DNA of 64,000 nucleotides, taken from contig JBAXAF010000001.1 of assembly GCA_037142675.1 (NCBI GenBank), forward strand, positions 28,543 through 92,542. Reading direction: 5' to 3'. The position numbers were made by a program, and so were the translations under genes. Below, piece after piece: positions 8,183 to 33,131 of this stretch. This DNA is from Candidatus Berkelbacteria bacterium (GTDB taxonomy: Bacteria; Patescibacteriota; UBA1384; XYA2-FULL-43-10; CAINNR01). Below the pieces are notes generated by a model. It had not been told where the DNA came from. It saw only the letters and a list, made by a program, of their open reading frames with translations, and made no database searches. Positions within the stretch are counted from its first letter, which is position 1, and every line of letters starts with the position of its first letter.

Positions 8183-8234
8183 CCCTGTTAAATGCGCCGT
8201 TAGCGCAATCTGCAGGGCAGATTATTTAACAGGG
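8183..8234 (+). repeat. Family-2 structured palindromic element (CCCTGTTAAAT - two inner hairpins - ATTTAACAGGG), copy 1, in the 5' UTR of the ABC permease
   Basis: Outer 11-bp inverted repeat enclosing hairpins GCGC-CGTTA-GCGC and ATCTGC-AGGG-GCAGAT; related copy at 33080-33131 with compensatory inner stems. Confidence 0.55.
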
Positions 8235-8247
8235 TAAAAGGAGACAA

Positions 8248-9447
8248 ATGGAAATTTTAAGAAACATGTGGCGGAGGAAGTTTAGAACAGCTTTGACAAT
8301 TTTTGGAATTGTTATCGGAATCTTTGCATTTACCGTTATGGGTTCAATGGCTCTAAAGTTGAACAAAATGATCGATGGTGGAAAAAAGTATGTCACCGGT
8401 CAAATATCAGTTTCGCCAAAAGGTTCAGCTGGCTACGGAACTGCAACTGGGACATTGCCAATTGATACATTAAATAAAATTTCTGAGATTGATGGTGTTG
8501 ATAAGGTCGGAGCGCTGGTTTCGCTTTTAGTTGAGGACATGGACCCTGATAATATGTCAATGAATATGAGCGAGCCACCATCAGTGTACGGTCAGGATCT
8601 AAATTCCGATTTCAAAAACCGCAATTGGGAAACCATGACTATGAAGTCAGGAAAAATGCCTGACAAAGATTCAAAAGACAGCGATATTGCAGTCGGGGTA
8701 AATATTGCCACTGACAAGAAACTTGGCATCGGCGACAGTTATAAAATTCGCGGAAAAGATTTTAACGTTATCGGCATTGTCGACAAAACAATGACTGGGC
8801 CAGATAGCTATGTATTTATGGCAATTACACCGGCAAGGGAAATGCTAATTGAATCAAATCCGTTCATGAAATCACTTTACGCCAGCGGAAAATTAAAACT
8901 TGAAGATGTTAATTCCATGGCGGCAGTTTCCTGGAAAGATGGTGCTGATTCAGAAAAAGTAGCCAATGAAATCAAAAATAAATTTGGTAAGGATGTAACT
9001 GTTATGTCGCCAGTGAAAATGGGTGAGTTAATCGATAAAGCGTCTGCAACTATGAACGCAATTATTCTAGGTAGTGCAATGCTGGCGTTAATCGTTGGCC
9101 TATTCTCAATAGTAAATACTATGGTAATGTCAATTTCTGAACGAACTAAGGAAATTGGAATTAAAAAAGCTATTGGCGCATCGCCTTCTTCCATCGCCTG
9201 GGAGTACACAATGGAGGCCGGTATTATTGGCCTGGTTGGCGGAGCAATTGGCATGGGGTTCGGAGTTTTGGCTGCTACTATAATAAATAACAAATTGGCG
9301 GAAAAAGGGGCGGAAATATTTTTATTAGAACCTAGCTTTCTAATTGCGGTAATAGTATTCTCGTTTGTTGTTGGAATTATTGCTGGGGTAATTCCAGCGG
9401 TTAGAGCATCAAAACTGAAAGTGGTTGAGGCTATACGCGAACTATAA
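8248..9447 (+). CDS. ABC transporter permease, FtsX/MacB family
   Basis: N-terminal TM, large extracytoplasmic loop, three C-terminal TMs typical of the MacB/FtsX fold; RBS AAAGGAG. Confidence 0.85.
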   Translation: MEILRNMWRRKFRTALTIFGIVIGIFAFTVMGSMALKLNKMIDGGKKYVTGQISVSPKGSAGYGTATGTLPIDTLNKISEIDGVDKVGALVSLLVEDMDPDNMSMNMSEPPSVYGQDLNSDFKNRNWETMTMKSGKMPDKDSKDSDIAVGVNIATDKKLGIGDSYKIRGKDFNVIGIVDKTMTGPDSYVFMAITPAREMLIESNPFMKSLYASGKLKLEDVNSMAAVSWKDGADSEKVANEIKNKFGKDVTVMSPVKMGELIDKASATMNAIILGSAMLALIVGLFSIVNTMVMSISERTKEIGIKKAIGASPSSIAWEYTMEAGIIGLVGGAIGMGFGVLAATIINNKLAEKGAEIFLLEPSFLIAVIVFSFVVGIIAGVIPAVRASKLKVVEAIREL

Positions 9448-9453
9448 ATGTTT

Positions 9454-9522
9454 TGTCATTCCGGACTTGATCCGGAATCTCTATCAAAAGTAATTAGATC
9501 CTGAATCAAGTTCAGGATGACA
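9454..9522 (+). repeat. Family-1 double-hairpin REP-like element, copy A (TGTCAT-[TTCCGGA..TCCGGAA]-spacer-[CCTGAA..TTCAGG]-ATGACA)
   Basis: Terminal 6-bp inverted repeat TGTCAT/ATGACA plus two internal hairpins; intercistronic between the ABC permease and ATPase. Confidence 0.6.
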
Positions 9523-9542
9523 ATCTGAAAAAAGGAAATATT

Positions 9543-10220
9543 ATGAATAAAATAGTTGTTGAAGCTAAGGGCATAGAAAAAAGTTATAAAATGTCAAAGC
9601 AAAATGTTGTTTGCGCCCTTTGTGGTGTTGATATTGAGGTGAAAGAAGGTGATTTCTCGGCGATAATTGGCCCTTCTGGTTGTGGCAAATCAACTCTAAT
9701 GCATATATTAGGTTTGCTAGATCGTCCAGACTCAGGAGTTCTCAAGATTGATGGAATTGATATGACAAAATTACCAGAGAAACAAGCTTTCAAAATGCGG
9801 GCAAAAAAGATCGGCTTTATTTTTCAAGGATTTAATTTGATTCCAACCTTAACTGCGATAGAAAATGTTGTCCTTGCTGGCCGTTATGGTGGAATGAAAA
9901 AAGCTGCCAGGCTGAATCGAGCAAAAGAACTTTTGAAGATGCTTGGCTTGACTGATCGTATTAATCACAAGCCAAGCGAGCTTTCTGGTGGCCAACAGCA
10001 AAGAGTGGCAATCGCTCGGGCTTTAATGAATGATCCGGCAATTATATTAGCCGATGAGCCAACAGGGGAGCTTGATTCAAAAACATCCATGGAGATCATG
10101 GATATATTAAAGAAACTTAACAGAGAAGATAACAAAACCTTTTTAATTGTTACTCACAATATGGAAGTCGCTGAAGCCTGCAAGAAGATTGTCAAACTAC
10201 GCGACGGTAAAAACGCCTAA
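9543..10220 (+). CDS. ABC transporter ATP-binding protein
   Basis: Walker [13 protein letters not shown] signature [15 protein letters not shown], Walker B ILADEPT. Confidence 0.9.
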
Positions 10221-10238
10221 GGTTTTTTAACAAGGTGG

Positions 10239-11009
10239 TTAAAGATCTAAATTTCTGATGAATGTGTGCCAAGTTAGGCGTAGCCCTAAAGGAATATAGA
10301 AAAACAAATATTTTATCAGGGCTAGAACTGACCAAGTTCCGTAAATTGCTTTGGTTTGGTGGTTTTTTAGCGCCCGTTTTAAATCGGCGGCAGTTTTGCC
10401 TTCAAAAACCGTGTATGCTCGGCCAATTGCCTCAACAATATGGGCATCAGATCCGCCGGTTTCGCCACGAAAAAGAATAGTCTTATTTAGTGCTGATGCG
10501 GCTAGATTTTCATCGGCCAGAGTTGGTGTCCCATTTACAACCTCAACAGCATCTATTAAATATTTATTACTTATCAATTGTTTTGCGCCAATGCCGTCCA
10601 TGGTTGCTTGCGTCGGGTCATTAAAATTGGTGTGCATAAAAGGATGAGAGGGGACAGCAATTCCGCCTTGCTTGTGAATTTGTTCCAGAGTTGTATGAGC
10701 TGAATGTCCAGGTTCAATTGCTTCCTTCAAAAAAAGGCCAAGAATATGGCCGTGTTTCGAAGATATTTCTTCTCCAATTATTACATCAAAACGGTAATTA
10801 TTTCTTTCTGCGATTTTTACCGCCTGTTGCGCGCCTTCAATAGTGTCGTGATCAGTAATAGCGATAACGTTCAGATCAGTGTAATTTTGAACATATTCCA
10901 AAATTTGTTCAATTGTTGGCCGGCCATCAGAAAAATTACTGTGGATATGCACATCAGCACTGCTCAAACCTATAAAGTTCTCAAGTTTTTTTACCCCTCG
11001 CTTGTGCAT
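10239..11009 (-). CDS. PHP-domain metal-dependent phosphoesterase
   Basis: HIHSNFSDG ... AITDHD histidine/aspartate motifs typical of the PHP family. Confidence 0.75.
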   Translation of the reverse strand: MHKRGVKKLENFIGLSSADVHIHSNFSDGRPTIEQILEYVQNYTDLNVIAITDHDTIEGAQQAVKIAERNNYRFDVIIGEEISSKHGHILGLFLKEAIEPGHSAHTTLEQIHKQGGIAVPSHPFMHTNFNDPTQATMDGIGAKQLISNKYLIDAVEVVNGTPTLADENLAASALNKTILFRGETGGSDAHIVEAIGRAYTVFEGKTAADLKRALKNHQTKAIYGTWSVLALIKYLFFYIPLGLRLTWHTFIRNLDL

Positions 11010-11422
11010 TACTCGCCTTTATTGCTCTGGCCGAAACCACCCTGCTCCTCGTATCTTTCAGCGCCTTTAACCAAGGTGGCGCCAATCTTAAATTTGCGAA
11101 TTTTTCCTTCTGAGTCTAGAAATTCTTCTTTGTTGGATTTTTGATAAAAATCCAAAAGTTCAGCCGATAGAATATCTTTTAGAACACTAAGGTCTTGAGT
11201 GTTGTTTTTAATTTCCTCAACGTATTTTTGATTCTCTGGCAGGTTTAGAATTGTGTCTTTTACTTGCTTCTTTTTAATATTGGCAGTTTTTGCTTCTTCG
11301 CGAGCCTGAACATATTCCAAATCATTTTCGAGCTGCTGCTTAATAGCGTCTTTAGCGGCCTTAATTTCTTTTTGGTTTTTTTCTAACTCAGCGATTCGGT
11401 TTCGAATTTGGTCAACTTCCAT
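11009..11422 (-). CDS. Hypothetical coiled-coil protein
   Basis: Charged, Lys/Glu-rich ORF, stop overlapping the PHP start (operon-like). Confidence 0.45.
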   Translation of the reverse strand: MEVDQIRNRIAELEKNQKEIKAAKDAIKQQLENDLEYVQAREEAKTANIKKKQVKDTILNLPENQKYVEEIKNNTQDLSVLKDILSAELLDFYQKSNKEEFLDSEGKIRKFKIGATLVKGAERYEEQGGFGQSNKGE

Positions 11423-11547
11423 TTTATCCTCGATTCTTTAAATTATTTTTAACTCTTTTCATCAGCATGGCAGATATAGACACCAGGATCAAGTTTCGCT
11501 TGCTTCTTGAAGCGTTTTTGAACCAAACCCAACATGAGTTTTTGTCT

Positions 11548-11625
11548 TGGTCGGAGAGAGAGGATTCGAACCTCCGATCTTCGGACCCCCAGCCCGACGC
11601 ATTAACCGGACTATGCTACTCTCCG
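11548..11625 (-). tRNA. tRNA-Pro (anticodon GGG), CCA encoded
   Basis: Manual cloverleaf: 7-bp acceptor stem CGGAGAG/CTCTCCG, D-stem GCAT/ATGC, anticodon loop CUGGGGG, T-arm GGAGG-TTCGAAT-CCTCT, 3' ACCA. Confidence 0.8.
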
Positions 11626-11904
11626 TAATGTTCTACCCGTAAGCCCCAGCACCAGAGCAAAGCTCGGTACGGGGTGAATAAATTGGACTAGTGATAAAAG
11701 TGGGTGCCTCAGCACCAAGACCACGGTCCTAGCGCAATATTGAGCCAACCTTTCCATATCTTGCGACACAGATCAGCGCCCCGCATAACCTTGCGGCTAT
11801 TTGGGATCCCGACGTTAAAAAAATTGTGGTCCAATTTATTGAATCGGATAGAACATCATTAATATTAGCAGAAACTATTTTAACTTTTAAGATGCTCCAG
11901 AATT

Positions 11905-11945
11905 AAAAAATCGCCCGAAATACAGTTAGGCTGTCAGGCGATTTT
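11905..11945 (-). terminator. Intrinsic terminator downstream of rpmB
   Basis: AAAATCGCC..GGCGATTTT 9-bp stem followed by a T-run on the minus strand. Confidence 0.55.
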
Positions 11946-12107
11946 CTACTTGTCAGATTTGACAGCGGTACGCAAACAACGGGTGCAGAGAACTGTACCG
12001 TTAACTTTTTGTAGATTTGGCTTGAAAAGACGTTTGGTATGTCGCTGTGAATGGGAAACATTCGAGCCGACAACCTTGGCTTTTCCACAGATTGAGCAAA
12101 TGGCCAT
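11946..12107 (-). CDS. rpmB: 50S ribosomal protein L28 (53 aa, below the ORF-track cutoff)
   Basis: Translation [53 protein letters not shown] matches the L28 pattern (N-terminal Cys pair, SHSxxxTKRxFxPNLQ). Confidence 0.8.
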
Positions 12108-12279
12108 GATATTTAGTTTAAAACTAATAACGAATAACTAACAACCGCAACTTATAACAATTCAACTTCCAAAATTGAATCAAATTTGTTACAATACTTA
12201 AGAATTCTAACATAAATGTTTTAAAAATTCAACTTTCCAAAACTATTTGTTATTCACTTTTAGCTATTAGTTAATTATT

Positions 12280-12927
12280 ATGTTTCTACTTAACCTAATT
12301 TCTTCGCCATTTTTTGCCGTTGCAGCCATTGTTGGTTTGCTTTTGGCAATCACGGTTCATGAGTTTGCTCATGCTTGGATGGCCAATTACTTAGGCGATC
12401 CGACGGCAAAAAAACTTGGGCGGCTGACATTAAATCCTTTTAAACATTTGGATCCCCTGGGAACATTATTTTTATTGGTTGCTGGTTTTGGTTGGGGAAA
12501 ACCGGTGCCGTACAATCCATCAAATTTAAAATCCGATGCTGATGAAGTTAAGGTTGCACTGGCTGGAGTTTTTGCTAACCTAATATTTGCCTTAATTCTT
12601 GGTATCCCGCTACGGATTGCTACACTTAGCCACGTCGCAATTAATTCAAATATGTGGTTAATGGCAATTGAATTTGTGCTGGAAATGAATTTGATTTTAA
12701 TTGCTTTCAATATTATACCAATTCCACCACTCGACGGTTCGAAAATAATTTTTCAGTTTATTAGTTTTAACGCCCGAATGAGTTTTGAGCGATACGGTCC
12801 AATAATCTTATTCGCTTTAATAATTGCCAGCAATGTTTTTGGCTTTCCGTTTTTAGTCCGTTTTATGGAGCCAATAATCCGTGTACTCTCGTTTGCGGCT
12901 AAAGGAACATACACGGCGATATTTTAG
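12280..12927 (+). CDS. Site-2 protease family membrane metalloprotease (peptidase M50)
   Basis: HEFAHAWMA (HExxH) in a TM helix and a second-site LDG motif (NIIPIPPLDGSKI); multiple TMs. Confidence 0.8.
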   Translation: MFLLNLISSPFFAVAAIVGLLLAITVHEFAHAWMANYLGDPTAKKLGRLTLNPFKHLDPLGTLFLLVAGFGWGKPVPYNPSNLKSDADEVKVALAGVFANLIFALILGIPLRIATLSHVAINSNMWLMAIEFVLEMNLILIAFNIIPIPPLDGSKIIFQFISFNARMSFERYGPIILFALIIASNVFGFPFLVRFMEPIIRVLSFAAKGTYTAIF

Positions 12928-13043
12928 CATTATCATCATCGGTGATCTAAGATTCCTGTTTGCACAGCAATGACAGAATAAAAAACGCCCTGCCGGTGGT
13001 AAGACCGGCAGGGGTTGTGTTCGTGATTGAGCCGTTGCCAGTG

Positions 13044-13742
13044 CTACACAGCAGCGACTTCGTCGGCAGGGCCCTCGAGCAACGCATGGATCCTGTCGGC
13101 GTCGGTGGCATCCATGCCAGCCGACCGACGCAAGGCAACTAGCTCATTGAGCCGATGCTTCAATCGCTTGAATGCCTGGTTGGCGGTGACGATCCGGTCG
13201 TCGGCGCCCGAGCGAAGCGCTGACTCGATTTCAGCCAGCGTTTCCTTGACGATCTGGTTGCCCCGGATTTCATCCATGGTGAGTCCTGCTTCAACGGCCT
13301 CGTCGACGATCTTCTTGATCCGCTCGGAGAAGATCGGTCGGGAGTTGGCGATCAGGCTGTCGGCAGCTTGGCCAACGGTCGGTCGCTGGACCCGCTGACA
13401 CTTCTCGTGTTTCAGATCAGCATCAATTGCTGTCCAGGGCGTCTCGCTCTGGTGAGGGCCATCAGTTGGCTTCACCGTCAGAGCGACTTGGTCGGACGGC
13501 AACCAATTGCCATGAGGGTCGCCCATCAACTTCTTGCGCGTGTCGGGGCCAATGAAGACCTTTGCTCCCTGGTTGGCCCCTTCGCCGCTGAGACACTCGA
13601 CAATAGTGGCGCGGCCGAAGCGCTCGTGGAGCGCCTCGATTTCGACCACCACTGCTAGTACGTCTGACTTTCGGTAATGCTGGCGGCGCTTGCCCTGTTC
13701 CATGATTACACTTTCTGTGCAAATATGATCTGGCTTCGTCAA
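13044..13742 (-). CDS. Hypothetical protein from a high-GC ORF (likely true start at internal Met, about 13703)
   Basis: ORF with high GC; intrinsic terminator downstream (12988-13020, CCCTGCCGG..CCGGCAGGG plus T-run); no recognisable domain. Confidence 0.45.
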   Translation of the reverse strand: MTKPDHICTESVIMEQGKRRQHYRKSDVLAVVVEIEALHERFGRATIVECLSGEGANQGAKVFIGPDTRKKLMGDPHGNWLPSDQVALTVKPTDGPHQSETPWTAIDADLKHEKCQRVQRPTVGQAADSLIANSRPIFSERIKKIVDEAVEAGLTMDEIRGNQIVKETLAEIESALRSGADDRIVTANQAFKRLKHRLNELVALRRSAGMDATDADRIHALLEGPADEVAAV

Positions 13743-13868
13743 GTCGAAGCTCTCAATTCACGCGCTTTGTGCGGCGGATGGTCAGAATTGTAGCATAAAA
13801 TTATATATTTGTCAATAAAAAAAGCCTGCCACGGACGGCAGGCAGTGCTTGGTTGTTGGTGGGGCCGG

Positions 13869-14507
13869 TTAGGTCTCAGCCTGTACCGGGATTTCAAGCC
13901 CGGCTATCGGTTTCCTTGGCTGTGTCGCAGGGTCGGACAGGTGATCGATCAGTGGCGCGAATGTTCCCTGAAGTAGCGCCGCGACTGTCATTGGCTTGTG
14001 CCAGTCTTGATGATCGTCTTTGTAGGAGATATCGATCATCATCTCCTCGGACTTGGGCGCCTTGCGAGCTCCCTTGATGTGGCCGGGGTCATCAGCGAAG
14101 AGGATTTCTGCGTTCCGCAGGCTGTCTCGCTGATCACAATCACCATACATCAATCGAAGCAGTTTCAGGACTCTGGCATCGATTTGTGGAAATATCGGGG
14201 AGATGTCCGACAGGTCGACGTCGATTGTACCTGGACGGATAATGTCCTTGACGCTAAACCCCCGAATTGCCCATTCTCCTTCGTCGTCGGCGTACTCGAC
14301 GCGGAGTACTGTGTCGCTGGTGCCCATGCCAAAGGCTGGGTTTGTACTGAAGATCTTGCCGGTCAGTGACTCATCTTTACCCCACCCTCGGTACCGAACT
14401 GTGATCGGTCGACCTTGCAGAGACCGCCTAACTACATCAAGCTCGCAGTTCATGGCGATGAGTAGGTAGAGTGCGGCCGAATCTTCTGGCGACAATTGGG
14501 CTATCAT
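13869..14507 (-). CDS. Hypothetical protein from a high-GC ORF, adjacent to the previous one
   Basis: 212-aa ORF in the same GC-rich block; no recognisable domain. Confidence 0.45.
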   Translation of the reverse strand: MIAQLSPEDSAALYLLIAMNCELDVVRRSLQGRPITVRYRGWGKDESLTGKIFSTNPAFGMGTSDTVLRVEYADDEGEWAIRGFSVKDIIRPGTIDVDLSDISPIFPQIDARVLKLLRLMYGDCDQRDSLRNAEILFADDPGHIKGARKAPKSEEMMIDISYKDDHQDWHKPMTVAALLQGTFAPLIDHLSDPATQPRKPIAGLEIPVQAET

Positions 14508-14560
14508 ATGTCAATACACTCCCACTGGATGCAGAATTGTTGGATCAACTAATATATATC

Positions 14561-14590
14561 AAAAAAATGGCTTGCAAGCCATTAATAATA
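14561..14590 (-). terminator. Intrinsic terminator (perfect palindrome AATGGCTTGCAAGCCATT plus T-run) after the zinc-ribbon gene
   Basis: 18-bp perfect palindrome flanked by an A-run and T-run. Confidence 0.5.
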
Positions 14591-14663
14591 TTGATTTAGA
14601 TTGTCCGCAGGATCATCTTCGATAGACCGCGCCCTTCGGGCTTGCAATGACAAAACAAAGAAA

Positions 14664-15032
14664 CTATTCCGGGAGGGTTAGCCCTTTTTCGTAGATTTTT
14701 TCGTTGCGTTTTACGATTTCTTTATTGAAACAATCTTCACAAAGAATATTTTCAGATTTTGGTTCAAAAGGAACTTCGGCCTTTTTGCCGCACTTTTTGC
14801 ACTTAATCCAGTTCATTGGGTGTTTTTCGCGCAGTTGTGATTTGAATTTCTCGGCACAAGGTTTGCAGCGCTTGGGCACATTTTGCAATCCCTTATCATA
14901 GAAAAACTGCTGCTCTCCGACGGTCCAAATGAATTTGTCGCCGCAGTCCTTGCAGACCAGAACTTGATCCTCGAATTGTTTTTCGCTTGTTGCCATTACA
15001 TAAATCGTACCGTCAAATGGTTTCATTGTCAA
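14664..15032 (-). CDS. Zinc-ribbon protein with four CxxC pairs
   Basis: CKDCG..CKPC..CKKCG..CEDC spacing; start uncertain (possibly leaderless from the internal Met MATSEK behind a TTGACA-N17-TACGAT promoter). Confidence 0.55.
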   Translation of the reverse strand: MTMKPFDGTIYVMATSEKQFEDQVLVCKDCGDKFIWTVGEQQFFYDKGLQNVPKRCKPCAEKFKSQLREKHPMNWIKCKKCGKKAEVPFEPKSENILCEDCFNKEIVKRNEKIYEKGLTLPE

Positions 15033-15063
15033 TTCAGGGCAAATCTGTTAAATTTTGGAGTAG

Positions 15064-15777
15064 ATGGATAAAAATTCCGAAGCACAAAATTTGGCTGATA
15101 AAAAAGTATCATCTTATATTTATTATGGTTCGAATTCGGAAGCTTCTTATTTAGCGGTCAAAGATTTTGCCAAAAATGCCGGCATTTCCGAATTTGATAC
15201 AGTAGAAATTGAGCCGGAGGTAGGGGAGAAAAATTCCAAGGGTGAAATTGGTGTTAAAGCGGTTCGTGAAATGATTCGGCAAATAAACTTGACTCCAGGC
15301 CATGGCAGCGGTAAACTGGCGATAATCAAAGAAGCTGATCGATTGGGGCTTGAGGCGGCAAATACGCTGCTTAAAACCTTGGAGGAGCCGCCAAGAACGG
15401 CTACAATTATTCTATTGTCGGCCGATCTTAGATTGTTGCCAACTATTCGTTCGCGTTGCCAAATAGTCCGTTTTGATGATAAAACCACTGATGCTGACGA
15501 GGAAGTATTAGCTGAATTTCGGGAGATAATTCGCGGCAACTTGGGCAAGTCGTTTAAAAGTGCTGATAAAATGAGCACCAGTGCCGACTTGGACCAGCGA
15601 TTGAATACAATTCTTTCATCATTGCGTAATCAATTGCCAGATGACCCTAACATTAACAAAGTTAGAGTTATCAAATCAATATTGATGGCGAGGCGAAATT
15701 TAAAAATTACCACTAGCAAAAGATTAGTTTTAGAAAATTTATTTATGGAAATTAAATATGGCAAAAGTAGCAGTTAA
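15064..15777 (+). CDS. holB: DNA polymerase III delta' subunit
   Basis: AAA+ clamp-loader fold without an intact Walker A; LLKTLEEPP and sensor TIRSRCQ motifs. Confidence 0.8.
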   Translation: MDKNSEAQNLADKKVSSYIYYGSNSEASYLAVKDFAKNAGISEFDTVEIEPEVGEKNSKGEIGVKAVREMIRQINLTPGHGSGKLAIIKEADRLGLEAANTLLKTLEEPPRTATIILLSADLRLLPTIRSRCQIVRFDDKTTDADEEVLAEFREIIRGNLGKSFKSADKMSTSADLDQRLNTILSSLRNQLPDDPNINKVRVIKSILMARRNLKITTSKRLVLENLFMEIKYGKSSS

Positions 15778-17262: not shown

Positions 17263-17266
17263 TTCG

Positions 17267-17295
17267 TTGAAATTATATGTAAATTCTGATAGAAT
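17267..17295 (+). promoter_or_regulatory. Promoter TTGAAA-N17-TAGAAT for the tRNA/rpmG cluster
   Basis: Near-consensus hexamers with 17-nt spacer about 45 nt upstream of the first tRNA. Confidence 0.45.
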
Positions 17296-17337
17296 AGTGA
17301 GCGTTGAGGGTAATTTTTTATATTGAGGGGTAAATTT

Positions 17338-17413
<76 letters not shown>

Positions 17414-17506
17414 CCTCGACAAAATTGTCTCGGGTGGTACCAGTACCTGGAGATTATTATTGCCAGAATTGGCTCGGCTGATAACAACACCTTTAAAATT
17501 GCATAT

Positions 17507-17592
17507 GCTGGGATAGCGAAGTGGTCAAACGCATTGGACTGTAAATCCAACGGCTTACGCCTTCGTAGGTTCGAGTCCTACTCCCAGCACCA
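17507..17592 (+). tRNA. tRNA-Tyr (anticodon GTA) with long variable arm
   Basis: Acceptor GCTGGGA/TCCCAGC, anticodon loop CTGTAAA, long extra arm, T-loop GGTTCGAGTCC, ACCA. Confidence 0.85.
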
Positions 17593-17743
17593 GCCAAAAT
17601 TGCTAATTCAATTAGCGGTTTTGGCTGGTGAGTTGAATAGTAAGAAGGCGAGAAAGTCGGAGGCGCGACTGGCGCCGAGACGGGGTCGACGAATCCCGAA
17701 GCATCGGGATATCGGTGACCGAGTCCTACTCCCAGCACCACTT

Positions 17744-25760: not shown

Positions 25761-25817
25761 GTAAAAAAAATTTTATTCTGTGCGCAATCTGTATTTTTAT
25801 AAAAAGTATTAAAAGTG

Positions 25818-25847
25818 TTGCACAACAAAAAACTATTGTTGTATAAT
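25818..25847 (+). promoter_or_regulatory. Promoter TTGCAC-N18-TATAAT for the pilus-assembly operon
   Basis: Consensus -10, good -35, followed by RBS AGGAGGG before ATG 25874. Confidence 0.5.
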
Positions 25848-25873
25848 AGAAGAAATGAATTGTAGGAGGGTTA

Positions 25874-26509
25874 ATGCCGGGTGAAAATGAGCACGGTGCT
25901 CGAGTAGAAGAGCCGTTTTTGGAAATTAATACTAGCGAAGACGAAGGCGGAGGAGCGGCTAATATTGTTTTTGTCTCCTCAATAATTCTGGTAGTTTTAA
26001 TTACCGGATTTTTTATTTTCTATAAATATAGAACTGATTCAGAGGTTAAAGACAAGCAGCAGGCGCTCAATAGCGTGATGGATCAAATCAATAGCAGTGA
26101 AAATAAAGCAATTACTGTTAAGGCTCAAAACTTAAATTCTGCGCTCGGAATACTAACCGTTGCATCAAAATCGAAATACTCATTTAAAACTTTTATTGAC
26201 GCCTTAAAAACAAAAATTACTAAAGATACAAAGTTAAACTCAATATCAATTTCTGATGCAGGGCTGGTTTCTATGGATGGCATTACTACAAATTTTCGTT
26301 CTGTCGCCGACTTAGCCGTGGCACTTGGAGCTTCGCCAAAGTTAAAAAATGTTCAAATAGTTGGCCTTACCAAGTCAGATGACGAATCTTCTAGCTTGGT
26401 CGGTTTTTCCATGACGGCAGAAATCAAAGATTGGTCTACTGCTTCGTCGGCTGATTCTAACACTGATTCTGCCGATAGCGCTGGTAGCGTTGGAGGTGCA
26501 AGTGAATAA
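25874..26509 (+). CDS. PilN-like type IV pilus inner-membrane assembly protein (tentative)
   Basis: Single N-terminal TM, coiled-coil then periplasmic domain, located upstream of pilB. Confidence 0.4.
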   Translation: MPGENEHGARVEEPFLEINTSEDEGGGAANIVFVSSIILVVLITGFFIFYKYRTDSEVKDKQQALNSVMDQINSSENKAITVKAQNLNSALGILTVASKSKYSFKTFIDALKTKITKDTKLNSISISDAGLVSMDGITTNFRSVADLAVALGASPKLKNVQIVGLTKSDDESSSLVGFSMTAEIKDWSTASSADSNTDSADSAGSVGGASE

Positions 26510-27068
26510 AAAAGATTTAAATCTATTATTGCCGGCCATAACAGCCATTTTGGCCATTGCCAGCTATTTTATTTGCAGTGATCTTTTTATGCCCACAATT
26601 GCAGACAACACCTCAAAAATTACTGCATATGATCAAGAAATTACCTCAGCCAATGAAAAGCTTGACTCTATCTCTGCTGCTGACAAATCAATGACGGAAT
26701 TGTCATCGGTGGTAAACAATCTGTTAATTGCTGTTCCTGAGAGTGCTAATGCTCCTGATTTAATCACCGAAATTGAAGTAATTGCTAGCCAGAGCCAGGT
26801 ACTGTTGCCTAGTTTGTCGCCGCCATCTGCTGCTATTGTTGGTGGAGCATCGGGTGTCGCGTCAGGCAAAAGTTTCTTAACCAGCCTAACGGTTTTTGGC
26901 ACCTTCCAGAACATCAATACCTTTATTAATTCCTTAGAAACTTCAATTCGTTTTTCAAAGATTAATAATTTGAGCTTGTCTGCTTCAGAGAATGGCTTAT
27001 CTGCCTCAATCACAATTGAGGTCTATAGCCGTCCAGCAATTTCTAGCTCTATCGGGGTGTCACAATGA
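26490..27068 (+). CDS. PilO-like type IV pilus assembly protein (tentative)
   Basis: Single TM, coiled-coil, overlapping gene pair with the preceding ORF. Confidence 0.4.
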   Translation: MEVQVNKKDLNLLLPAITAILAIASYFICSDLFMPTIADNTSKITAYDQEITSANEKLDSISAADKSMTELSSVVNNLLIAVPESANAPDLITEIEVIASQSQVLLPSLSPPSAAIVGGASGVASGKSFLTSLTVFGTFQNINTFINSLETSIRFSKINNLSLSASENGLSASITIEVYSRPAISSSIGVSQ

Positions 27069-27337
27069 AACAAAATACTTTTTCTGATAAGGCAATGCTA
27101 GTGGTAAGCTTGGCTTTGCTGGTACTAATTATTGTCACATTTGTTTGGATGTGGTTCTGGTCAAGCCGACCGTCAGTAGATAGCTTCAAAACAACAGATA
27201 ACTTGCAGCCGATTAGTGTGGCCGGGCTTGAGACTCGGGCTCAAAAAATTCTTGATGGTTTAAAAAATAATTCTGGCATTCCAATCCCCGAACCTACCTC
27301 GAAGGAGGGACGGGATGATCCATTTGCCAGTCTTTAA
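27065..27337 (+). CDS. Small membrane protein in the pilus operon (PilP-like?)
   Basis: 90 aa, one TM, translational coupling with the upstream gene. Confidence 0.35.
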   Translation: MKQNTFSDKAMLVVSLALLVLIIVTFVWMWFWSSRPSVDSFKTTDNLQPISVAGLETRAQKILDGLKNNSGIPIPEPTSKEGRDDPFASL

Positions 27338-27339
27338 AT

Positions 27340-27470
27340 GAAATTATAATATCAAAATTCTAAATTCTAAACAAACCCAAATGATCAAATTCTTGAATAT
27401 TAAAGAAGATAAAACATTTTAATTTTGATATTGTTTAGGAATTAGATATTAGAGTTTAGAAATTTGTATT
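27340..27470 (+). repeat. AT-rich, roughly 130-bp element with terminal inverted repeats (AATTCTAAATTCTAAAC ... GTTTAGAAATT), copy X, upstream of pilB
   Basis: Shares TTCTAAACAAAYCCAAATGAYCAAA core and inverted ends with copy Y at 36386-36525. Confidence 0.45.
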
Positions 27471-27477
27471 TATAAAT

Positions 27478-29904
27478 ATGGATAGTCAAAAAAAAAATTC
27501 TCCAATTATTAATTCGCAATTTAGCGGTCTTTATCAGGCCCTTTCTTCTCAATCAATTATCGACGTATTTGTAGTTCAGGGCTTGGTTCTGCCGGCCGAT
27601 GGTGAAAAGATTAAATCTAAATATCAAAACAATCTTGCGATTGAACGTTTTTTATTATCAAATAAATTAATTTCTCGCGAGGCGATTAACAAGGCCTACA
27701 GCATCATATTAAAACTGCCGTTTATTTCACTTCATAACGTTGCGATTCCGGAAGATGTTAAAAAAGTTGTCCCAGAGCGCTTGGCTAAGAAGTTCCAGGT
27801 AGCGGCTTTTGCAAAAAAAAATCAAATACTCAATTTGGCGATTGCAAATCCTGGAGAGTTATTTTTGCCGCAAAATCAAACGTTGGAGAGTTTAGTCGCC
27901 AGTAAAAATTTAACTTTGGAACTATTTATTACCACACCTGAGGATTTGATTCAGGTTCTTGGTCGTGGCAAAGAGGCTGTGTCCCTAGATAAAGGTAACT
28001 TGCCAGTAATTTTTTTACGCAATAGAAATGTTGACCAAAAAGTTTTGCAATTATTGCCGCTGGAATTTATCTTGAAAAATAGGTTAGTTATTTTTGACAA
28101 ACTAGGTCCAAAAACATTTAGAATTGCCCAGGAAGATCCGTACAATGCTAAAACTAAGCAAATCATTGAATATCTAAAAACCAATAACAATTTGGAGCTA
28201 GAGGAGTTTTCTACTTCAAAGGATGACATAGATTATCTTATTTCTCTCTATCAAAAAGCTGCAGCTGGTGTTGTTTTAGACAAACCCGAAGTTTTGGAGA
28301 AAAAAGCTGACGGCGGAGCCTTTAGCGGCTTGTTGGAATCATTGGTCTCTGACAATAAGCCTGGAATCGCCAGCGAAGAGTCCATCAGTAAAGCTGTCCC
28401 AATGCAAACCAGCAAATTTGGCGAACTATCCGGGCCAAAAAAAAGTTCTGATCAGCCAGCGTCAGCTCAAGATGAAGTTAGGTATGAACTTGAGGCAACA
28501 AAAAAATTAGAAAATGAGGAAAAAGACATAGGAAAACTTTTGGGTAAGGATGTGAAGACAGTGGAAGAGTTAAAGGAAATTGCCAGTGAAAATTCAACCC
28601 CAAAGTTTGTAGCTGGAATAATCAGTTTTGCTCTGACTATCGGTTCTTCTGATATTCATGTTGAGCCAGAGGCCAAAAGACTTAGAATCCGTTGCAGAGT
28701 CGATGGGATATTGAAAGATATTTTTCAATTGCCGCCGGAATATGGTCCTCAAATTATAAGTCGAATAAAAATACTTGCAGGCATGAAACTTGATGAAACC
28801 AGGATCCCACAGGATGGTCGTTTTTCAGTTGACTTCATGGAGCGAGAAGTTGATGTCCGCGTTTCTATGTTGCCAACTGTCTACGGCGAAAAAACCGTAA
28901 TGAGAATCTTGGATAAGACTCAAGGAATAAGGTCGCTGGAGGATTTGGGGTTTGTCGGTTCGGCTTTCAAAATTGTAATGGAGCAAATCAAACAGCCGTA
29001 TGGAATTATTATGTCCACTGGCCCAACTGGATCAGGAAAATCCACAACCTTGTACGCGATACTTAATCGATTAAACCAGCCAGGAGTGAATGTTGTTACC
29101 CTTGAGGACCCAGTTGAATACGAAGTTCCTGGTGTTAACCAGTGCCAAATTAAGCCAAAAATTGGTTTTACTTTTGCTGAAGGCCTTCGAAGCATTTTGC
29201 GACAAGACCCAAACATCATTATGGTTGGTGAGGTTCGCGATGCTGATACGGCTTCAATGGCTACACACGCAGCTCTAACTGGTCATTTGGTCCTAACCAC
29301 TCTGCACACTAATGATGCGGCGTCAGCACTGCCTCGGCTGATCAACATGGGAGTTGAGCCATTTCTAATTACCTCTAGTATAAATTTAATTATTGCACAA
29401 AGATTACTTCGTCGCATTTGCCCTAAGTGCAGGGAAAAGGTTGAAATTCCAGAAGCCCTAAAGCAAGCCATTCAAAAAGAAGTTAACAGCATTTCTAAAA
29501 CCAATCAGGACGATATCGCCAGGGTGAAAGAGTTACAATTTTATAAGGGTCGAGGATGCAAAGAGTGCACAGAGGGTTATAAGGGGCGAGTCGGCATTTA
29601 TGAACTTTTGGTTATGGATGATCAAATCGAGAACTTAGCAGTTTCTCGTCGACCAGCTTCAGAAATTAAAGACGCGGCAATAGCAGCTGGAATGCTAACA
29701 ATGAAGCAAGATGGCATTTTAAAGGCAATAGACGGGTTGACTACAATCGATGAAGTACTGCTGGCTACTGGTGAAGTTGGGATGGGTGAGGCCATCAATG
29801 CGGCTAAAGCTCAAGTTGCCCCGAAACCGGCAATGCCAGACTGCGAACCAGAAGAAAAAAAGGAAAACATAGAACCAAAAGTAAACAATGATAAAAATGA
29901 TTGA
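27478..29904 (+). CDS. pilB: Type IV pilus assembly ATPase PilB (GspE family) with long N-terminal extension
   Basis: Walker A GPTGSGKST, Asp/His boxes, tetracysteine CPKC..CKEC, GspE core. Confidence 0.85.
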   Translation: MDSQKKNSPIINSQFSGLYQALSSQSIIDVFVVQGLVLPADGEKIKSKYQNNLAIERFLLSNKLISREAINKAYSIILKLPFISLHNVAIPEDVKKVVPERLAKKFQVAAFAKKNQILNLAIANPGELFLPQNQTLESLVASKNLTLELFITTPEDLIQVLGRGKEAVSLDKGNLPVIFLRNRNVDQKVLQLLPLEFILKNRLVIFDKLGPKTFRIAQEDPYNAKTKQIIEYLKTNNNLELEEFSTSKDDIDYLISLYQKAAAGVVLDKPEVLEKKADGGAFSGLLESLVSDNKPGIASEESISKAVPMQTSKFGELSGPKKSSDQPASAQDEVRYELEATKKLENEEKDIGKLLGKDVKTVEELKEIASENSTPKFVAGIISFALTIGSSDIHVEPEAKRLRIRCRVDGILKDIFQLPPEYGPQIISRIKILAGMKLDETRIPQDGRFSVDFMEREVDVRVSMLPTVYGEKTVMRILDKTQGIRSLEDLGFVGSAFKIVMEQIKQPYGIIMSTGPTGSGKSTTLYAILNRLNQPGVNVVTLEDPVEYEVPGVNQCQIKPKIGFTFAEGLRSILRQDPNIIMVGEVRDADTASMATHAALTGHLVLTTLHTNDAASALPRLINMGVEPFLITSSINLIIAQRLLRRICPKCREKVEIPEALKQAIQKEVNSISKTNQDDIARVKELQFYKGRGCKECTEGYKGRVGIYELLVMDDQIENLAVSRRPASEIKDAAIAAGMLTMKQDGILKAIDGLTTIDEVLLATGEVGMGEAINAAKAQVAPKPAMPDCEPEEKKENIEPKVNNDKND

Positions 29905-29982
29905 TCAAATACGCTAGACATTGTTTGACTGCAGTGGTTTTTCTTTGGTATCATAATATTAAGTTAACATCCTGGAGGGAAT

Positions 29983-31065
29983 ATGGAGCCTACTGGCAAT
30001 GATACTTCGAAGTTCCCGGCGTTTTCACGCCTGCTTAGTTTGGCGATCTCGAAAGGTGCCTCTGACATCCATATTGTTGTTGGTTCTCATCCACTACTGC
30101 GGATAGATGGTAGGTTGCTGCCAGTTACCTCTGAGCCACCTTTGACGCTTGATAAGGTTAATAATCTACTGTCGGAAATCGCCAGCCCAGAGATTTTAGA
30201 AAAAGTTAAATCTAAAACAGAAATGGATTTTTCTTTTGAATTTGATCACACTCGATTCCGCACAAATGTGTATTTGCAAAAGAATCTGCCGGCTGCATCA
30301 CTGCGGTTAATTCCTAGCAAGGTAAAAACTTACACAGAACTTGGTTTGCCGCCAATCGTTGAATTTTTTACCTCTCAGTCTCAAGGCCTGGTTATTATTA
30401 CCGGCCCAACTGGCCATGGAAAATCAACCACACTGGCTTCAATGGTGCAAAAAATTAATTTAGAGCGGCGCGAGCATATTATTACTATTGAAGATCCAAT
30501 TGAGTATTTGTTTACCAGCGAAAAGAGCTTGGTTTCCCAACGTGAAATTGGCACTGACAGTCAAAGTTTTCCAGCAGCGCTTCGGAGTGCTCTTCGTGAG
30601 GACCCAAATGTTATACTCATTGGTGAAATGCGAGATCTGGAAACCATCGAATCCGCGCTAACAATGGCGGAAACTGGACACTTAGTTTTGACGACTCTGC
30701 ACACAAATTCAGCTGCTCAAACCATAGATCGAATCGTTGGAGTTTTCCCAGCTTATCAGCAACAGCAAATTAGGAGCCAGCTGGCGTCAGTTCTCTTGGG
30801 AGTTATGTCCCAAAGGCTGATTCCAAAAATATCAGGTGGCCGAGCGGTTGCCGCTGAGGTAATGATTGCAAATCCTGCAATTCGCACCTTGGTTCGTGAT
30901 AACAAAATACATCAAATTCCGAATGTTATTCAAACATCTGCTTCAGAAGGTATGATTTTGCTTGATAAGGTTCTGGCTGAATTAATTTCTCGCGGAGAAG
31001 TTTCGCTCGAAGATGCACTGACCTGGTCAATATCTCCGAAGTCTCTAAAAATGATGGTGTATTAA
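29983..31065 (+). CDS. pilT: Twitching-motility retraction ATPase PilT
   Basis: Walker A GPTGHGKSTT, PilT-type His box, about 360 aa. Confidence 0.85.
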   Translation: MEPTGNDTSKFPAFSRLLSLAISKGASDIHIVVGSHPLLRIDGRLLPVTSEPPLTLDKVNNLLSEIASPEILEKVKSKTEMDFSFEFDHTRFRTNVYLQKNLPAASLRLIPSKVKTYTELGLPPIVEFFTSQSQGLVIITGPTGHGKSTTLASMVQKINLERREHIITIEDPIEYLFTSEKSLVSQREIGTDSQSFPAALRSALREDPNVILIGEMRDLETIESALTMAETGHLVLTTLHTNSAAQTIDRIVGVFPAYQQQQIRSQLASVLLGVMSQRLIPKISGGRAVAAEVMIANPAIRTLVRDNKIHQIPNVIQTSASEGMILLDKVLAELISRGEVSLEDALTWSISPKSLKMMVY

Positions 31066-31066
31066 T

Positions 31067-32269
31067 ATGATGAGATTTAAATACAGGGCGAAAAATGATC
31101 GCGGCGACATGGTCGGCGGCGTTGTTCGAGCTGATAATGTTTTGGCCGCAGAAAAGATTCTGCGTTCAAATAATCTGGTTACCGTCGACATTTTCCCCGA
31201 AACCACTGAGGTTTTTTCGGTTTTTGGAATTCGCAAAAAGGTTTCTCTTAGAGACAAGGCTATTTTTTCCAGCCAGCTTTCCACTATGGTTTCTGCTGGT
31301 TTGTCGTTGCCAAAGTCAATCAACATTATTGCGGCCCAAACTGATAATCAGTATCTCAAAAGTATTTTTTATAACGTCAACCGCGACCTAGAAGAAGGGT
31401 TGAATTTCTCATCTTCATTGGCAAAATACCCGGATGTTTTCGACGAGCTTTTTGTTAATGTTGTTAGGTCGGGCGAATCAACCGGTAACCTTGAAACAGT
31501 AATGCAGCGAATGTCAGAGAAAATTGATAAAGATCAAAATTTGTCTGCCAAACTTTTCTCAGCAATGATTTACCCAATCTTCATTATTGTAGCTTTAATT
31601 GGTGTCGGCTGGTTATTACTGGTGAAAATTGTGCCGCAAATTGAATCTGTTTTTAAAGATTCCAACGCCGCTCTTCCTTGGGCGACATCGACCTTAATTT
31701 CCATTTCCCATTTTCTCTCCGGCTACTGGTGGATAATATTATTAGCTGTGCTTTTACTTGTATTTTTTGGTCGCTATTATCTGGCCACAAATCAAGGTAA
31801 GGCCTTTTACGCCAAGGCACAATTAAGCATCCCAGGGTTCAAGAAGGTGTCATCAGATGTCTATATGGCAAGGTTCTGTCGAACAATTCAAATGCTTTTT
31901 GAGTCGGGTGTGCCGCTTTTGGACGCAATTAACACAACCGGTAACGTTATGGTAAACAGCTACTACAAAAGTTCGCTCCAAAGAATTTCAAAAGAGGTTC
32001 AAAAAGGTGTATCATTAAGTGTAGAACTTTCTAAGGATCCATTGTACCCACCGCTAATTAGCCAAATGATGGCGGTTGGCGAGCAAACCGGTAAATCTGC
32101 TGATGTAATGGAGAAATTGGCTAAGTTTTATGAAGACGAAGCTCAGAACGCAATCAGTGGTGTATATTCATTGGTTGAGCCGCTAGCTATGGTTCTTGTA
32201 GGCATTGGAGTGGCTGTCTTAGTTTTTGCTATATTAGTTCCAATATATCAAATAGCACAAATGCAGTAA
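31067..32269 (+). CDS. pilC: Type IV pilus platform protein PilC (GspF family)
   Basis: Two GspF repeats, three TM segments, position after pilT. Confidence 0.85.
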   Translation: MMRFKYRAKNDRGDMVGGVVRADNVLAAEKILRSNNLVTVDIFPETTEVFSVFGIRKKVSLRDKAIFSSQLSTMVSAGLSLPKSINIIAAQTDNQYLKSIFYNVNRDLEEGLNFSSSLAKYPDVFDELFVNVVRSGESTGNLETVMQRMSEKIDKDQNLSAKLFSAMIYPIFIIVALIGVGWLLLVKIVPQIESVFKDSNAALPWATSTLISISHFLSGYWWIILLAVLLLVFFGRYYLATNQGKAFYAKAQLSIPGFKKVSSDVYMARFCRTIQMLFESGVPLLDAINTTGNVMVNSYYKSSLQRISKEVQKGVSLSVELSKDPLYPPLISQMMAVGEQTGKSADVMEKLAKFYEDEAQNAISGVYSLVEPLAMVLVGIGVAVLVFAILVPIYQIAQMQ

Positions 32270-32330
32270 GCCGCGGTCGGTCGGTAGCATTGAATTGCTA
32301 ATTTAGTTAAATATTTATTTAGGAGGAAAA

Positions 32331-32849
32331 ATGAAGAGTAGAAAAGCCTTTACATTAATTGAGCTTCTTATTGTTATCGCCATTATTGGCATTTTGGCTG
32401 CTGTTATCTTTGTCAGCTTGAACGCTGCTAGAAAGAAAGCCTATGATGCGCAAGTTAAGAGCGACATGACATCGCTTTCACAGGCCCTTGAGATTGTTAA
32501 GATAGACAGAACCTTGCCAGGATTTAATTGGTCCACACTTGTAGATGTCCCTTCAACCGTTGCCACTTCAAATGATGCCAATATTGCTCGCTGGACAGAC
32601 AGTGGTGATGCTACAACCGGTAATCGATTGGTTCCGAAACTACCTACTAATCCAAATGGTGGCGTTTATGGCATTCACATTATTGCTGGCAACTCTTACT
32701 CCATGGTTGGCGCACTTAGTGTCGCGAACAAATTTTACTGCATTAAAGACGGCCAATCCAAAGAGTTTACTGCGGTTGCAACCGCCGCCGCTGGGACAAC
32801 TCCAGCAGCCACCAATCTTCAAAATGCTCATACGGCGTGTGATTCCTAG
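32331..32849 (+). CDS. Type IV pilin (copy 1)
   Basis: Class III signal MKSRKA|FTLIELLIVIAIIGILAAV, C-terminal Cys pair, RBS AGGAGG. Confidence 0.8.
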   Translation: MKSRKAFTLIELLIVIAIIGILAAVIFVSLNAARKKAYDAQVKSDMTSLSQALEIVKIDRTLPGFNWSTLVDVPSTVATSNDANIARWTDSGDATTGNRLVPKLPTNPNGGVYGIHIIAGNSYSMVGALSVANKFYCIKDGQSKEFTAVATAAAGTTPAATNLQNAHTACDS

Positions 32850-32873
32850 AAGTGATTCTTAGCTTTTGTTAAT

Positions 32874-32909
32874 GTTTGTCCCGCTTCTAGCGGGACAAAC
32901 TTGTTTTTT
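32874..32909 (+). terminator. Intrinsic terminator after pilin 1 (identical copy after pilin 2 at 33730-33765)
   Basis: TTTGTCCCGC-TTCTA-GCGGGACAAA stem-loop plus T-run. Confidence 0.6.
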
Positions 32910-32924
32910 CTACCATATATTTAT

Positions 32925-33030
32925 GGTAAATAGCTACTACAAAAGTTCACTGTAAATAATTTCAAAAGAGCTCCAAAAAGTGTATCATTATAAGTGTAGA
33001 ACTTTACAAATAGCACAAATGCAGTAAGCC
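32925..33030 (+). pseudogene. Degenerate partial copy of the pilC 3' end (duplication remnant)
   Basis: About 80% identity to pilC 31940-32010 plus the last 35 nt of pilC/intergenic (AAATAGCACAAATGCAGTAAGCCGCGGTCGG...), internal deletion, frame destroyed. Confidence 0.55.
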
Positions 33031-33079
33031 GCGGTCGGTCGGTAGCATTGAATTGCTAATTTAGTTAAATATTTATTTA

Positions 33080-33131
33080 CCCCTGTTAAATGCGCCTACG
33101 GCGCAACTCGCGAAACGAGTATTTAACGGGG
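33080..33131 (+). repeat. Family-2 structured palindromic element, copy 2, inserted between the duplicated pilin promoter and its RBS
   Basis: CCCCTGTTAAAT...ATTTAACGGGG enclosing hairpins GCGCC-TAC-GGCGC and ACTCG-CGAAA-CGAGT; absent from the otherwise identical region upstream of pilin 1. Confidence 0.55.

Follow-up and report, generated by a model that had tools for sequence, protein, structure and literature searches.

The window, a stretch of 64,000 nucleotides (nt) from a Candidatus Berkelbacteria bacterium (assembly GCA_037142675.1, contig JBAXAF010000001.1, positions 28,543 to 92,542 of the forward strand), is core chromosome. It encodes PBP1, ArgRS, a MacB-type ATP-binding cassette permease and ATPase, and GlnA, together with a type IV pilus operon (PilN/O/B/T/C, two tandem pilins whose identity is based on an N_methyl Pfam match, a prepilin peptidase and minor pilins) and further genes for aminoacyl-tRNA synthetases, L21, NusG, L11, Mfd, DprA, TopA and RecR. 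Two copies of a short palindromic element lie in this setting, one before the permease gene and one before the second pilin gene (pilin 2). The ends of the element are the arms of a near-invariant inverted repeat of 11 bp, (A)CCCTGTTAAAT...ATTTAACAGGG(T), and between them lie two (rarely one) short perfect hairpins, so that either strand can adopt a T- or Y-shaped three-way junction with full pairing. Both window copies are recent insertions, because the orthologous sites in close relatives are empty, and the element belongs to a family that extends across bacterial phyla. The features of the two sites, numbered from the first nucleotide of the window, are listed here.

8164–8182, beside copy 1: a 19-nt segment that, by alignment, replaces an unrelated 20 nt conserved in empty sites
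8183–8234: element copy 1, CCCTGTTAAAT / GCGC-CGTTA-GCGC / AATCTGC-AGG-GCAGATT / ATTTAACAGGG, with left arm 8183–8193, hairpins 8194–8206 and 8207–8223, and right arm 8224–8234
8235–8238, plus strand: TAAA flank, reading TTTA on the minus strand; pre-existing target sequence
8239–8243: permease Shine-Dalgarno sequence AGGAG, with the ATG at 8248
33076–33079, plus strand: TTTA target tetranucleotide, directly 5′ of the insertion and present in empty sites
33080–33135, plus strand: inserted block of 56 nt, consisting of a 5′ C (33080), copy 2 and a 3′ TGTA (33132–33135)
33081–33131: element copy 2, CCCTGTTAAAT / GCGCC-TAC-GGCGC / A / ACTCG-CGAAA-CGAGT / ATTTAACGGGG, with arms 33081–33091 and 33121–33131 and hairpins 33092–33104 and 33106–33120
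33136–33140, plus strand: pilin-2 Shine-Dalgarno sequence GGAGG, with the ATG at 33144–33146

A preliminary description of this DNA had recognised two copies with a shared 11-bp outer inverted repeat, and both are present as listed, the C at 33080 being extra to the second. The inner hairpins differ in sequence between the copies and are complementary within each, as had also been described; the second hairpin of copy 1, given there with an AGGG loop, instead has an AGG loop on a 7-bp stem. The stem of copy 1 is lengthened by an A-T pair (8182/8235), and in the right arm of copy 2 a G replaces the A of copy 1 and makes a T·G pair. On both strands of the window the pattern TGTTAAAT-N20-45-ATTTAAC occurs 3 times, against 0.03 expected from shuffles, and a covariance model made from related copies and scanned with its filters off finds two copies only. 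RNA folding of both copies yields free energies of −24 to −26 kcal/mol (z −4.2 to −5.3); DNA folding of both, on either strand, yields −18.5 to −20.3 kcal/mol (z −5.7 to −8.2). The fold of either strand, in each copy, is a three-way junction whose junction bases are essentially all paired. Where arm and hairpin meet in copy 2, an ATG (TTAAATGCG) also arises in frame with pilin 2 (33090–33701), and the mechanical list of open reading frames (ORFs) therefore begins pilin 2 inside the element; that ATG has no Shine-Dalgarno sequence and is probably without meaning.

The same architecture recurs widely. A scan of one genome per species with the pattern CCCTGTTAAAT-N20-45-ATTTAACRGGG, whose family counts are lower bounds, identifies at least 120 loci, with chance matches estimated at roughly 7. 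Among the matches listed, and judging by record title, about 48 are in Patescibacteria (many classes), 31 in Desulfobacterota, 13 in WOR-3/Stahlbacteria, 9 in Omnitrophota and 4 in Bacteroidota, with single matches in Acidobacteriota, Armatimonadota, Calditrichota, Cloacimonadota and others; several genomes have four to eight loci among them. Carriers include a single-cell genome and contigs of 0.6–4 Mb from several phyla, so bin contamination is not the explanation. The elements range from about 43 to 65 bp. One locus (L005, 1–6934), at first sight with two inverted copies, is a contig that folds back perfectly on itself over 3467 nt, an assembly or amplification artefact, and has one copy. 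Pilus loci of other Patescibacteria, 716 kb in total, contain no family member, and 2.9 million viral contigs (IMG/VR) contain 1 match only, on which a phage origin was rejected.

The family is described neither in Rfam nor in the searchable literature. Rfam, at gathering and at permissive thresholds, returned no family match for the window, for both copies or for 18 related loci, a full-text search for the arm sequences returned chance primer matches only, and a keyword search of the literature found no description of the family. The top Rfam score was for DUF2693-FD, at 18.3 bits against a gathering threshold of 44.5 (L100, 225–274). The closing stem of DUF2693-FD, aCCCUgc/gcAGGGu, matches the outer end of the element stem and is the sole shared part; a distant relation or a coincidence are both possible.

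Within the family, the interior is conserved in structure and free in sequence. Among 125 unique interiors are 78 in which each strand forms two hairpins that abut, with loops mostly of 3 nt and of free sequence, and interiors are unrelated in sequence between copies. In a model-fitted alignment of 150 matches, which includes both strands of many copies and so makes the absolute numbers generous, 98.4% of the cells are paired, compared to 78% in shuffles and 35–55% when the partners are slid; 14 of 14 inner pairs change on both sides. The preliminary description had named inner stems that do not covary as grounds against its proposal; the covariation found is strong. The arms are 11 bp long and extend to 12–15 bp, the junction contains 0–1 unpaired nt, and the family has no conserved unpaired bases. 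Second copies within the loci, which lie outside the pattern selection, keep the arms with occasional compensatory changes (L003, L041, L051 and L020), the variants being CCCCGTGAAAT/ATTTCACGGGG, TTAAGT/ACTTAA and TTAGAT/ATCTAA. There are also one-hairpin variants and variants with a loop of about 100 nt.

The insertion polymorphism is shown at pilin 2 and at the permease gene. The pilin duplication is also found in a relative (L137; PilC 97% identical), where the pilin-2 site is empty: the upstream sequence reads TATTTATTTA/GGAGGAAAAATG, the same as in the pilin-1 paralogue, and the window has 56 nt more (CCCCTG...CGGGG plus TGTA). In the pilin-1 paralogue and in pilin 2 of L137, TATTTATTTA abuts GGAGG with nothing intervening. 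The earlier proposal that copy 2 is an insertion is thus borne out by both a paralogous and an orthologous empty site. That the element is the sole difference between the two promoter regions is correct upstream of the ribosome binding site, where 73 nt are 100% identical between the two pilin genes; pilin 2 differs further in a 30-nt insertion after its ATG and in a spacer that is one A shorter. This 30-nt segment (33147–33176; CGAAAAGTAATGCAGTCCGCCTGTGGCGGA) is a separate, lineage-specific insertion directly after the ATG, missing from pilin 1 and from L137; it forms a perfect hairpin, TCCGCC-TGT-GGCGGA, and extends the prepilin leader to MRKVMQSACGGKSRKA/FTLIEL. No donor sequence for it, or for the 19-nt segment beside copy 1, was found in the window.

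At the permease site, the element is missing from relatives whose permeases are 94% (L128/L129) and 79% (L135/L136) identical. Their intergenic sequence is identical, ...AATTAAAG/TAAAAGGAGACAAATG, so that the empty-site boundary reads ...AAAG/TAAAAGGAGACAAATG, and window copy 1 is placed exactly before TAAAAGGAG. The 19-nt segment lies on the side of the element away from TTTA. Together with the left arm, it forms a near-consensus sigma-70-type site on the minus strand (8163–8191; the arm's TTAACA, 17 nt and TATAAT; 11/12 matches), directed at a divergent ORF of 59 amino acids. The idea that the element is a portable promoter was rejected, as −10-like hexamers spaced by 16–18 nt are not enriched at 250 half-sites of the family. 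Copy 1 lies downstream of an extended −10 motif, TGaTATTAT (8159–8167), whose counterpart is retained in the relatives; we read this motif by eye as a candidate promoter, and the promoter scan does not call it. Each window copy ends 4 nt before the Shine-Dalgarno sequence of the permease gene or of pilin 2, and both are, from their positions, probably transcribed as 5′ untranslated regions (UTRs). A local effect of the copies on expression is possible.

The flanks have a polarity, TTTA followed by the element and then TGAA, without target duplication. In particular, conservation reaches 4 nt past the arms (TTYR-CCCTG), and the flank pair TTTA...TGAA is found 32 times, as against 5 symmetric pairs. 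In each of the two filled/empty comparisons, TTTA is the flank that predates the insertion; it lies on the minus strand at the permease site and on the plus strand at pilin 2, where the TTTA at 33076–33079 equals the family's consensus left flank. New sequence stands on the opposite side, as TTGA plus 15 nt at the permease site and as TGTA at pilin 2. Neither the flank consensus nor either filled/empty comparison contains a direct target duplication, and a duplication of TA or of 4 bp is at odds with the consensus flanks. Further, head-to-tail arrays of the form TTTA[element]TGAA[element]TGAA..., with 4-nt TGAA linkers, are present at L056, L065, L042 and L012. Only their first unit has a TTTA-like 5′ neighbour, and the unit is therefore the element plus TGAA.

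Inner-hairpin order varies independently of this polarity. Read on the plus strand, window copies 1 and 2 agree in inner order and are opposite in TTTA polarity, and L111 differs from L010, L052 and L077 in inner order within the same composite flanks. By analogy, this independence resembles the flip/flop of hairpin-replicating palindromes. Nested elements and duplicated arms also occur. At L047 (812–929), the first hairpin of one element encloses another element (CCCCGTTAAAT GTCGCCTG[CCCTG...CAGGG]CGAACGAC ...ATTTAACAGGG), and at L033 (5448–5514) and L103 (2373–2440) the right arm is present twice in a row (ATTTAACAGGG-T/C-ATTTAACAGGG), which may be a footprint of aberrant end processing.

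The gene context of the family is mixed. Intergenic copies are co-directional in 73 cases, convergent in 12 and divergent in 11, about as for random intergenic placement; both orientations relative to the genes occur, and the neighbouring genes share no common function. The preliminary description had suggested that the element targets leaders, naming copies not tied to leaders as grounds against this, and the counts do not support leaders as its specific target. A riboswitch-like or protein-binding 5′-leader RNA, which it had also suggested, is likewise not supported: the element occurs in all contexts and both orientations, its junction bases are all paired, and Rfam has no match. G·U pairs make up about 2% of the inner cells and have no strand bias (26 versus 36). 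Moreover, neither the G·U counts nor the fold energies favour the strand set by the T·G flank, which argues against a strand-specific RNA. An intrinsic terminator was also rejected, as the 3′ flanks, TGAA or TAAA, have no T-run and the terminator scan calls neither element. The mixed contexts and orientations, the unbiased G·U pairs, the lack of conserved unpaired nucleotides and the lack of an Rfam match speak for a need of perfect palindromes on both strands, as in DNA, and against an RNA specific to leaders. The mobile palindromic element suggested in the preliminary description is supported by the empty sites, by the absence from the 716 kb of pilus loci, by the nested and tandem copies, and by the spread over at least 120 loci in many phyla.

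Several copies lie in ribosomal-protein operons. In two different Patescibacteria, copies at L001 (6529–6583) and L113 (6362–6417) precede rplC by 15–16 nt, a copy at L089 (4725–4780) lies between rpsM and rpsK, and a tandem pair at L012 (2051–2161) lies 47 nt upstream of an ORF that is taken for rplJ (L10) from its N-terminal sequence only. Their positions suggest insertion hot spots just upstream of ribosome binding sites, or a tolerance of insertions in highly expressed operons.

Overall, these observations are best accounted for by a cross-phylum family of very small, non-coding and non-autonomous mobile DNA elements, for which movement as folded single-stranded DNA is proposed; we assign this explanation a probability of roughly 55%. 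That the element is a mobile palindromic DNA element, by whatever route, is likely; the assignment to an HUH-type, single-stranded mechanism draws on analogy, is tentative and is less probable than not. The hallmarks of HUH transposition are known from the IS200/IS605 'peel and paste', REP-RAYT and IS91 rolling-circle systems. An HUH-type mechanism is proposed here on the grounds that one tetranucleotide is supplied by the target and the other carried, that there is no duplication, and that folding dependence, multimers and 3′ carry-over are all indicated. In the proposed scheme, the element would move as folded single-stranded DNA, acted on in trans by an enzyme for which the HUH type is the candidate class, with the invariant stem as the predicted protein-binding site. 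The inner hairpins would be required only to fold, which would be why they covary. Insertion would occur directly 3′ of a TTTA-like tetranucleotide owned by the target, without duplication, and the element would bring its own 3′ tetranucleotide (TGAA, TGTA or TTGA). Multimers of element plus TGAA could form head-to-tail, and extra 3′ sequence could travel along by read-through; a circular or tandem junction would read ...CAGGGTGAA/CCCTG.... Any effect of the −25 kcal/mol 5′-UTR structure on the permease and pilin-2 genes would be a by-product. A bolder form of the idea, which is speculative and on balance doubtful, is a class of mobile elements of about 50 nt whose body is a T-shaped single-stranded DNA junction, comparable to a parvoviral terminal repeat in bacterial miniature. 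A horizontally transmitted nuclease, specific for the structure and sequence of the 11–15-bp stem, would spread them at TTTA sites across at least five phyla, the reduced genomes of Patescibacteria among them; or else the stem would serve as a landing pad for a conserved host factor.

Several results weigh against this account. The window ORFs scanned gave no Pfam match to a transposase, integrase, recombinase, HUH nuclease or RAYT/Y1 protein; when 1101 ORFs of 120 listed loci were clustered, housekeeping families alone were recovered and no ORF family recurred beside the elements; and no larger, autonomous element with these ends was found, as about 0.9 Mb of loci contain no arm pairs at kilobase or insertion-sequence (IS) distances. 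The polarity is anchored by just two filled/empty pairs, in one of which (the permease site) the left side is unalignable and the 3′ tetranucleotide is TTGA, not TGAA. The flank bases at −1 and +1 tend to pair (A with T or G with C), which is unexpected if one flank is purely target. With gene direction as a proxy for replication, 19 copies are sense and 32 antisense, a weak bias that is contrary to the IS608 precedent. The inner hairpins are unrelated even between copies of one genome, which is unusual for recently amplified miniature inverted-repeat transposable elements (MITEs). Finally, the invariance of the arms is partly a matter of ascertainment, as the search pattern fixed them.

The element may instead act as a cis-acting RNA in leaders and spacers, such as a 5′-end stabiliser, an RNase III site, a translation modulator or a Y-shaped protein-binding RNA, that was retained after its spread; because the stem is palindromic, such a role could be played in either orientation. 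The strong covariation, the stable RNA folds, the end of both window copies 4 nt before a Shine-Dalgarno sequence, the copies near rplC (L001, L113b), at rpsM/rpsK (L089) and before the putative rplJ (the L012 pair), and the U·G pairs on one strand of the flanking stem in Desulfobacterales composites would all suit this explanation. It is nonetheless unlikely, since the same leaders lack the element in relatives with 79–97% identical proteins, 12 cases are convergent, the G·U pairs are scarce and without strand bias, no unpaired nucleotide is conserved, Rfam has no match and the neighbouring genes are functionally unrelated; a helix of 11 bp with a fixed sequence would also be odd for a generic stabiliser. 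The 15-bp half-site (TTYR)CCCTGTTAAAT, conserved across phyla, raises a quite different possibility, namely that the element is a site for a host DNA-binding or recombination protein (Xer-like, or a nucleoid or replication factor), with the hairpins joining two outward-facing half-sites in a cruciform or a folded strand, or an attC-like variant of such a site. TGTTAAAT would correspond to the outer 8 nt of the XerD arm in the dif site of E. coli (TTATGTTAAAT); GTTAAAT and ATTTAAC agree with the consensus words of attC R′ and R″, and a variable interior with a conserved fold resembles the variable terminal structure of attC. The half-sites, however, face outward, the inner three bases beside the would-be Xer cleavage site are CCC and not TTA, the attC words stand in the order GTT...AAC, the reverse of AAC...GTT, and extrahelical bases are lacking in the stems. 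The window ORFs scanned include no gene for an integrase or recombinase, and universal host-factor sites should not be missing from close relatives, all of which leaves a host-factor site improbable.

A further alternative is a remnant or mimic of the terminal hairpin of a rolling-hairpin replicon, or a palindrome that needs no dedicated enzyme for its spread, which template switching or gene conversion would bring about, for instance after natural transformation. The inverted terminal repeat (ITR) of adeno-associated virus (AAV) consists of an outer stem around two inner palindromes with 3-nt loops, an architecture that the element shares, as it does the flip/flop of inner hairpins (L111 against L010/L052/L077, and between the window copies). 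Neither window insertion is clean, sequence having been added or substituted beside it, and type IV pili and DprA are encoded in the genome. Against a rolling-hairpin origin, all copies are internal to chromosomes and none lies at a replicon end, viral contigs gave 1 match, and a Rep-like gene was looked for without success; neither the identical ends across phyla nor the TTTA...TGAA polarity is explained by gene conversion alone. These origins are accordingly rated as very improbable. The single-stranded DNA mobility proposed above shares several features with the IS200/IS605 palindrome-associated transposable elements (PATEs) and IS91: insertion beside a tetranucleotide without duplication, differing boundary tetranucleotides and hairpin dependence, and, for IS91, head-to-tail multimers and a 3′ flank carry-over like that of its one-ended transposition. 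The specific tetranucleotide, the lack of duplication and the asymmetric boundaries expected of HUH-type movement were all found in the two filled/empty pairs, in agreement with the flank counts and the tandem units. Those known elements, in contrast, lack long perfect terminal inverted repeats and have two hairpins that resemble each other, whereas the present element is about 52 bp long with a terminal stem of 11–15 bp, and no cognate TnpA was found.

Comparison with other known systems gives partial likenesses. REP/REPIN-RAYT sequences are also short, extragenic, non-coding hairpin palindromes with presumed mobilisation in trans as single-stranded DNA, tandem and inverted arrangements and possible effects on mRNA. 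The element differs from them in its flank (TTYR) and arm start (CCCTG) with no 5′ GTAG (GT[AG]G), in its density of 2 copies per 64 kb, in ends that are identical across phyla where REP ends are species-specific, and in a three-way junction in place of a single hairpin or doublet. Classical MITEs (Correia, ERIC, Nezha) are likewise small, non-autonomous, intergenic and polymorphic in insertion, with terminal inverted repeats and sometimes promoters, whereas the element's family spans phyla and its interior is kept in structure. A classical MITE derived from a DDE transposon was rejected, as there is no target duplication, the interior sequence is unconserved, and no parent IS with the same ends was found in about 0.9 Mb of loci. 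Integron attC sites, which work as folded single-stranded DNA, share a conserved stem base and a variable, sometimes branched interior kept as a fold, and GTTAAAT and ATTTAAC conform to GTTRRRY and RYYYAAC. An attC site was rejected on the inverted word order, the lack of extrahelical bases, of cassette arrays and, among the window ORFs scanned, of an integrase, the solitary copies in housekeeping loci, and an element length below that of known attC sites. The AAV ITR has the same T-shaped fold, with an outer palindrome around two small ones and flip/flop, yet the element is bacterial, internal to chromosomes and 52 nt long as against 125–145 nt, with no associated Rep gene. Mitochondrial double-hairpin elements are similar in being small, mobile, paired hairpins in intergenic DNA. 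A riboswitch or cis-regulatory leader RNA is not supported, although covariation is present, as there is no conserved pocket, the loops are free, and all contexts, orientations and unrelated neighbours occur.

Larger repeats incorporate the element in several lineages. In Desulfobacterales, a structured repeat of about 190 nt has the three-way junction as its core (L100, about 90–330; L082, L098, L037, L026 and others), with a covarying outer stem of 15–18 bp (GAGGCTGATGGAAAA.../GACGGCACAGTAAAAAGC...), an extra hairpin GGCGTAC...GTACGCC and asymmetric flanks; it lies in unrelated gene contexts and has no Rfam match. In WOR-3, an element with a conserved 40-nt interior that is not a hairpin lies within a larger palindrome, beside a simple hairpin with the same arms. 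A Patescibacteria composite (L010, 2380–2510; L052, 3790–3920; L077, 1350–1480; L111, minus strand, about 6020–6150) fuses a long upstream hairpin, starting from the preceding gene's stop codon (TAAAGGGCTTTGT...ACAAAACCTTTA), to the element, with TGCTCA as the right flank; at L111, the inner hairpins are in the opposite order to the other three. These four loci are copies of a larger composite repeat; that the first three, and later L111, are orthologous sites retained over a long time was rejected, as their flanks are 39–48% identical and their neighbouring ORFs differ. The nesting of composites fits an insertion of the element into other palindromes, or its capture by them.

The window holds further repeats of related form. 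A third family, at 43155–43190, 44848–44883 and 47932–47967, consists of GTAG and the palindrome ATTCCC-N8-GGGAAT (for example GTAGATTCCCGCCTTCGCGGGAATGAC); the GTAG is a signature of REP-like kind, and the family presumably resembles the Neisseria dRS3-type repeats. Two further copies of a repeat, at 9452–9522 and 37984–38054, have an outer stem TGTCAT/ATGACA and two inner hairpins with a spacer, in a sequence unrelated to the element; they are probably what the preliminary description counted as its first family. As this repeat shares the architecture, several kinds of T-shaped palindromic repeats exist in the genome.

For genome annotation, the element would be masked as a repeat and not carried as a riboswitch candidate. 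The two near-identical pilin genes, which differ by the insert while relatives hold the empty site, provide a natural experiment on how a three-way junction in the 5′ UTR affects expression, and the invariant stem gives a handle for finding the enzyme by phyletic co-occurrence. If the proposed reading is right, the family would be among the smallest mobile DNA elements, defined by its structure and by the sequence of an 11-bp stem, and its sharing among Patescibacteria, Desulfobacterota, WOR-3 and Omnitrophota would imply that uncultivated bacteria of groundwater and sediment either have recently exchanged it horizontally or have a recognition machinery in common.

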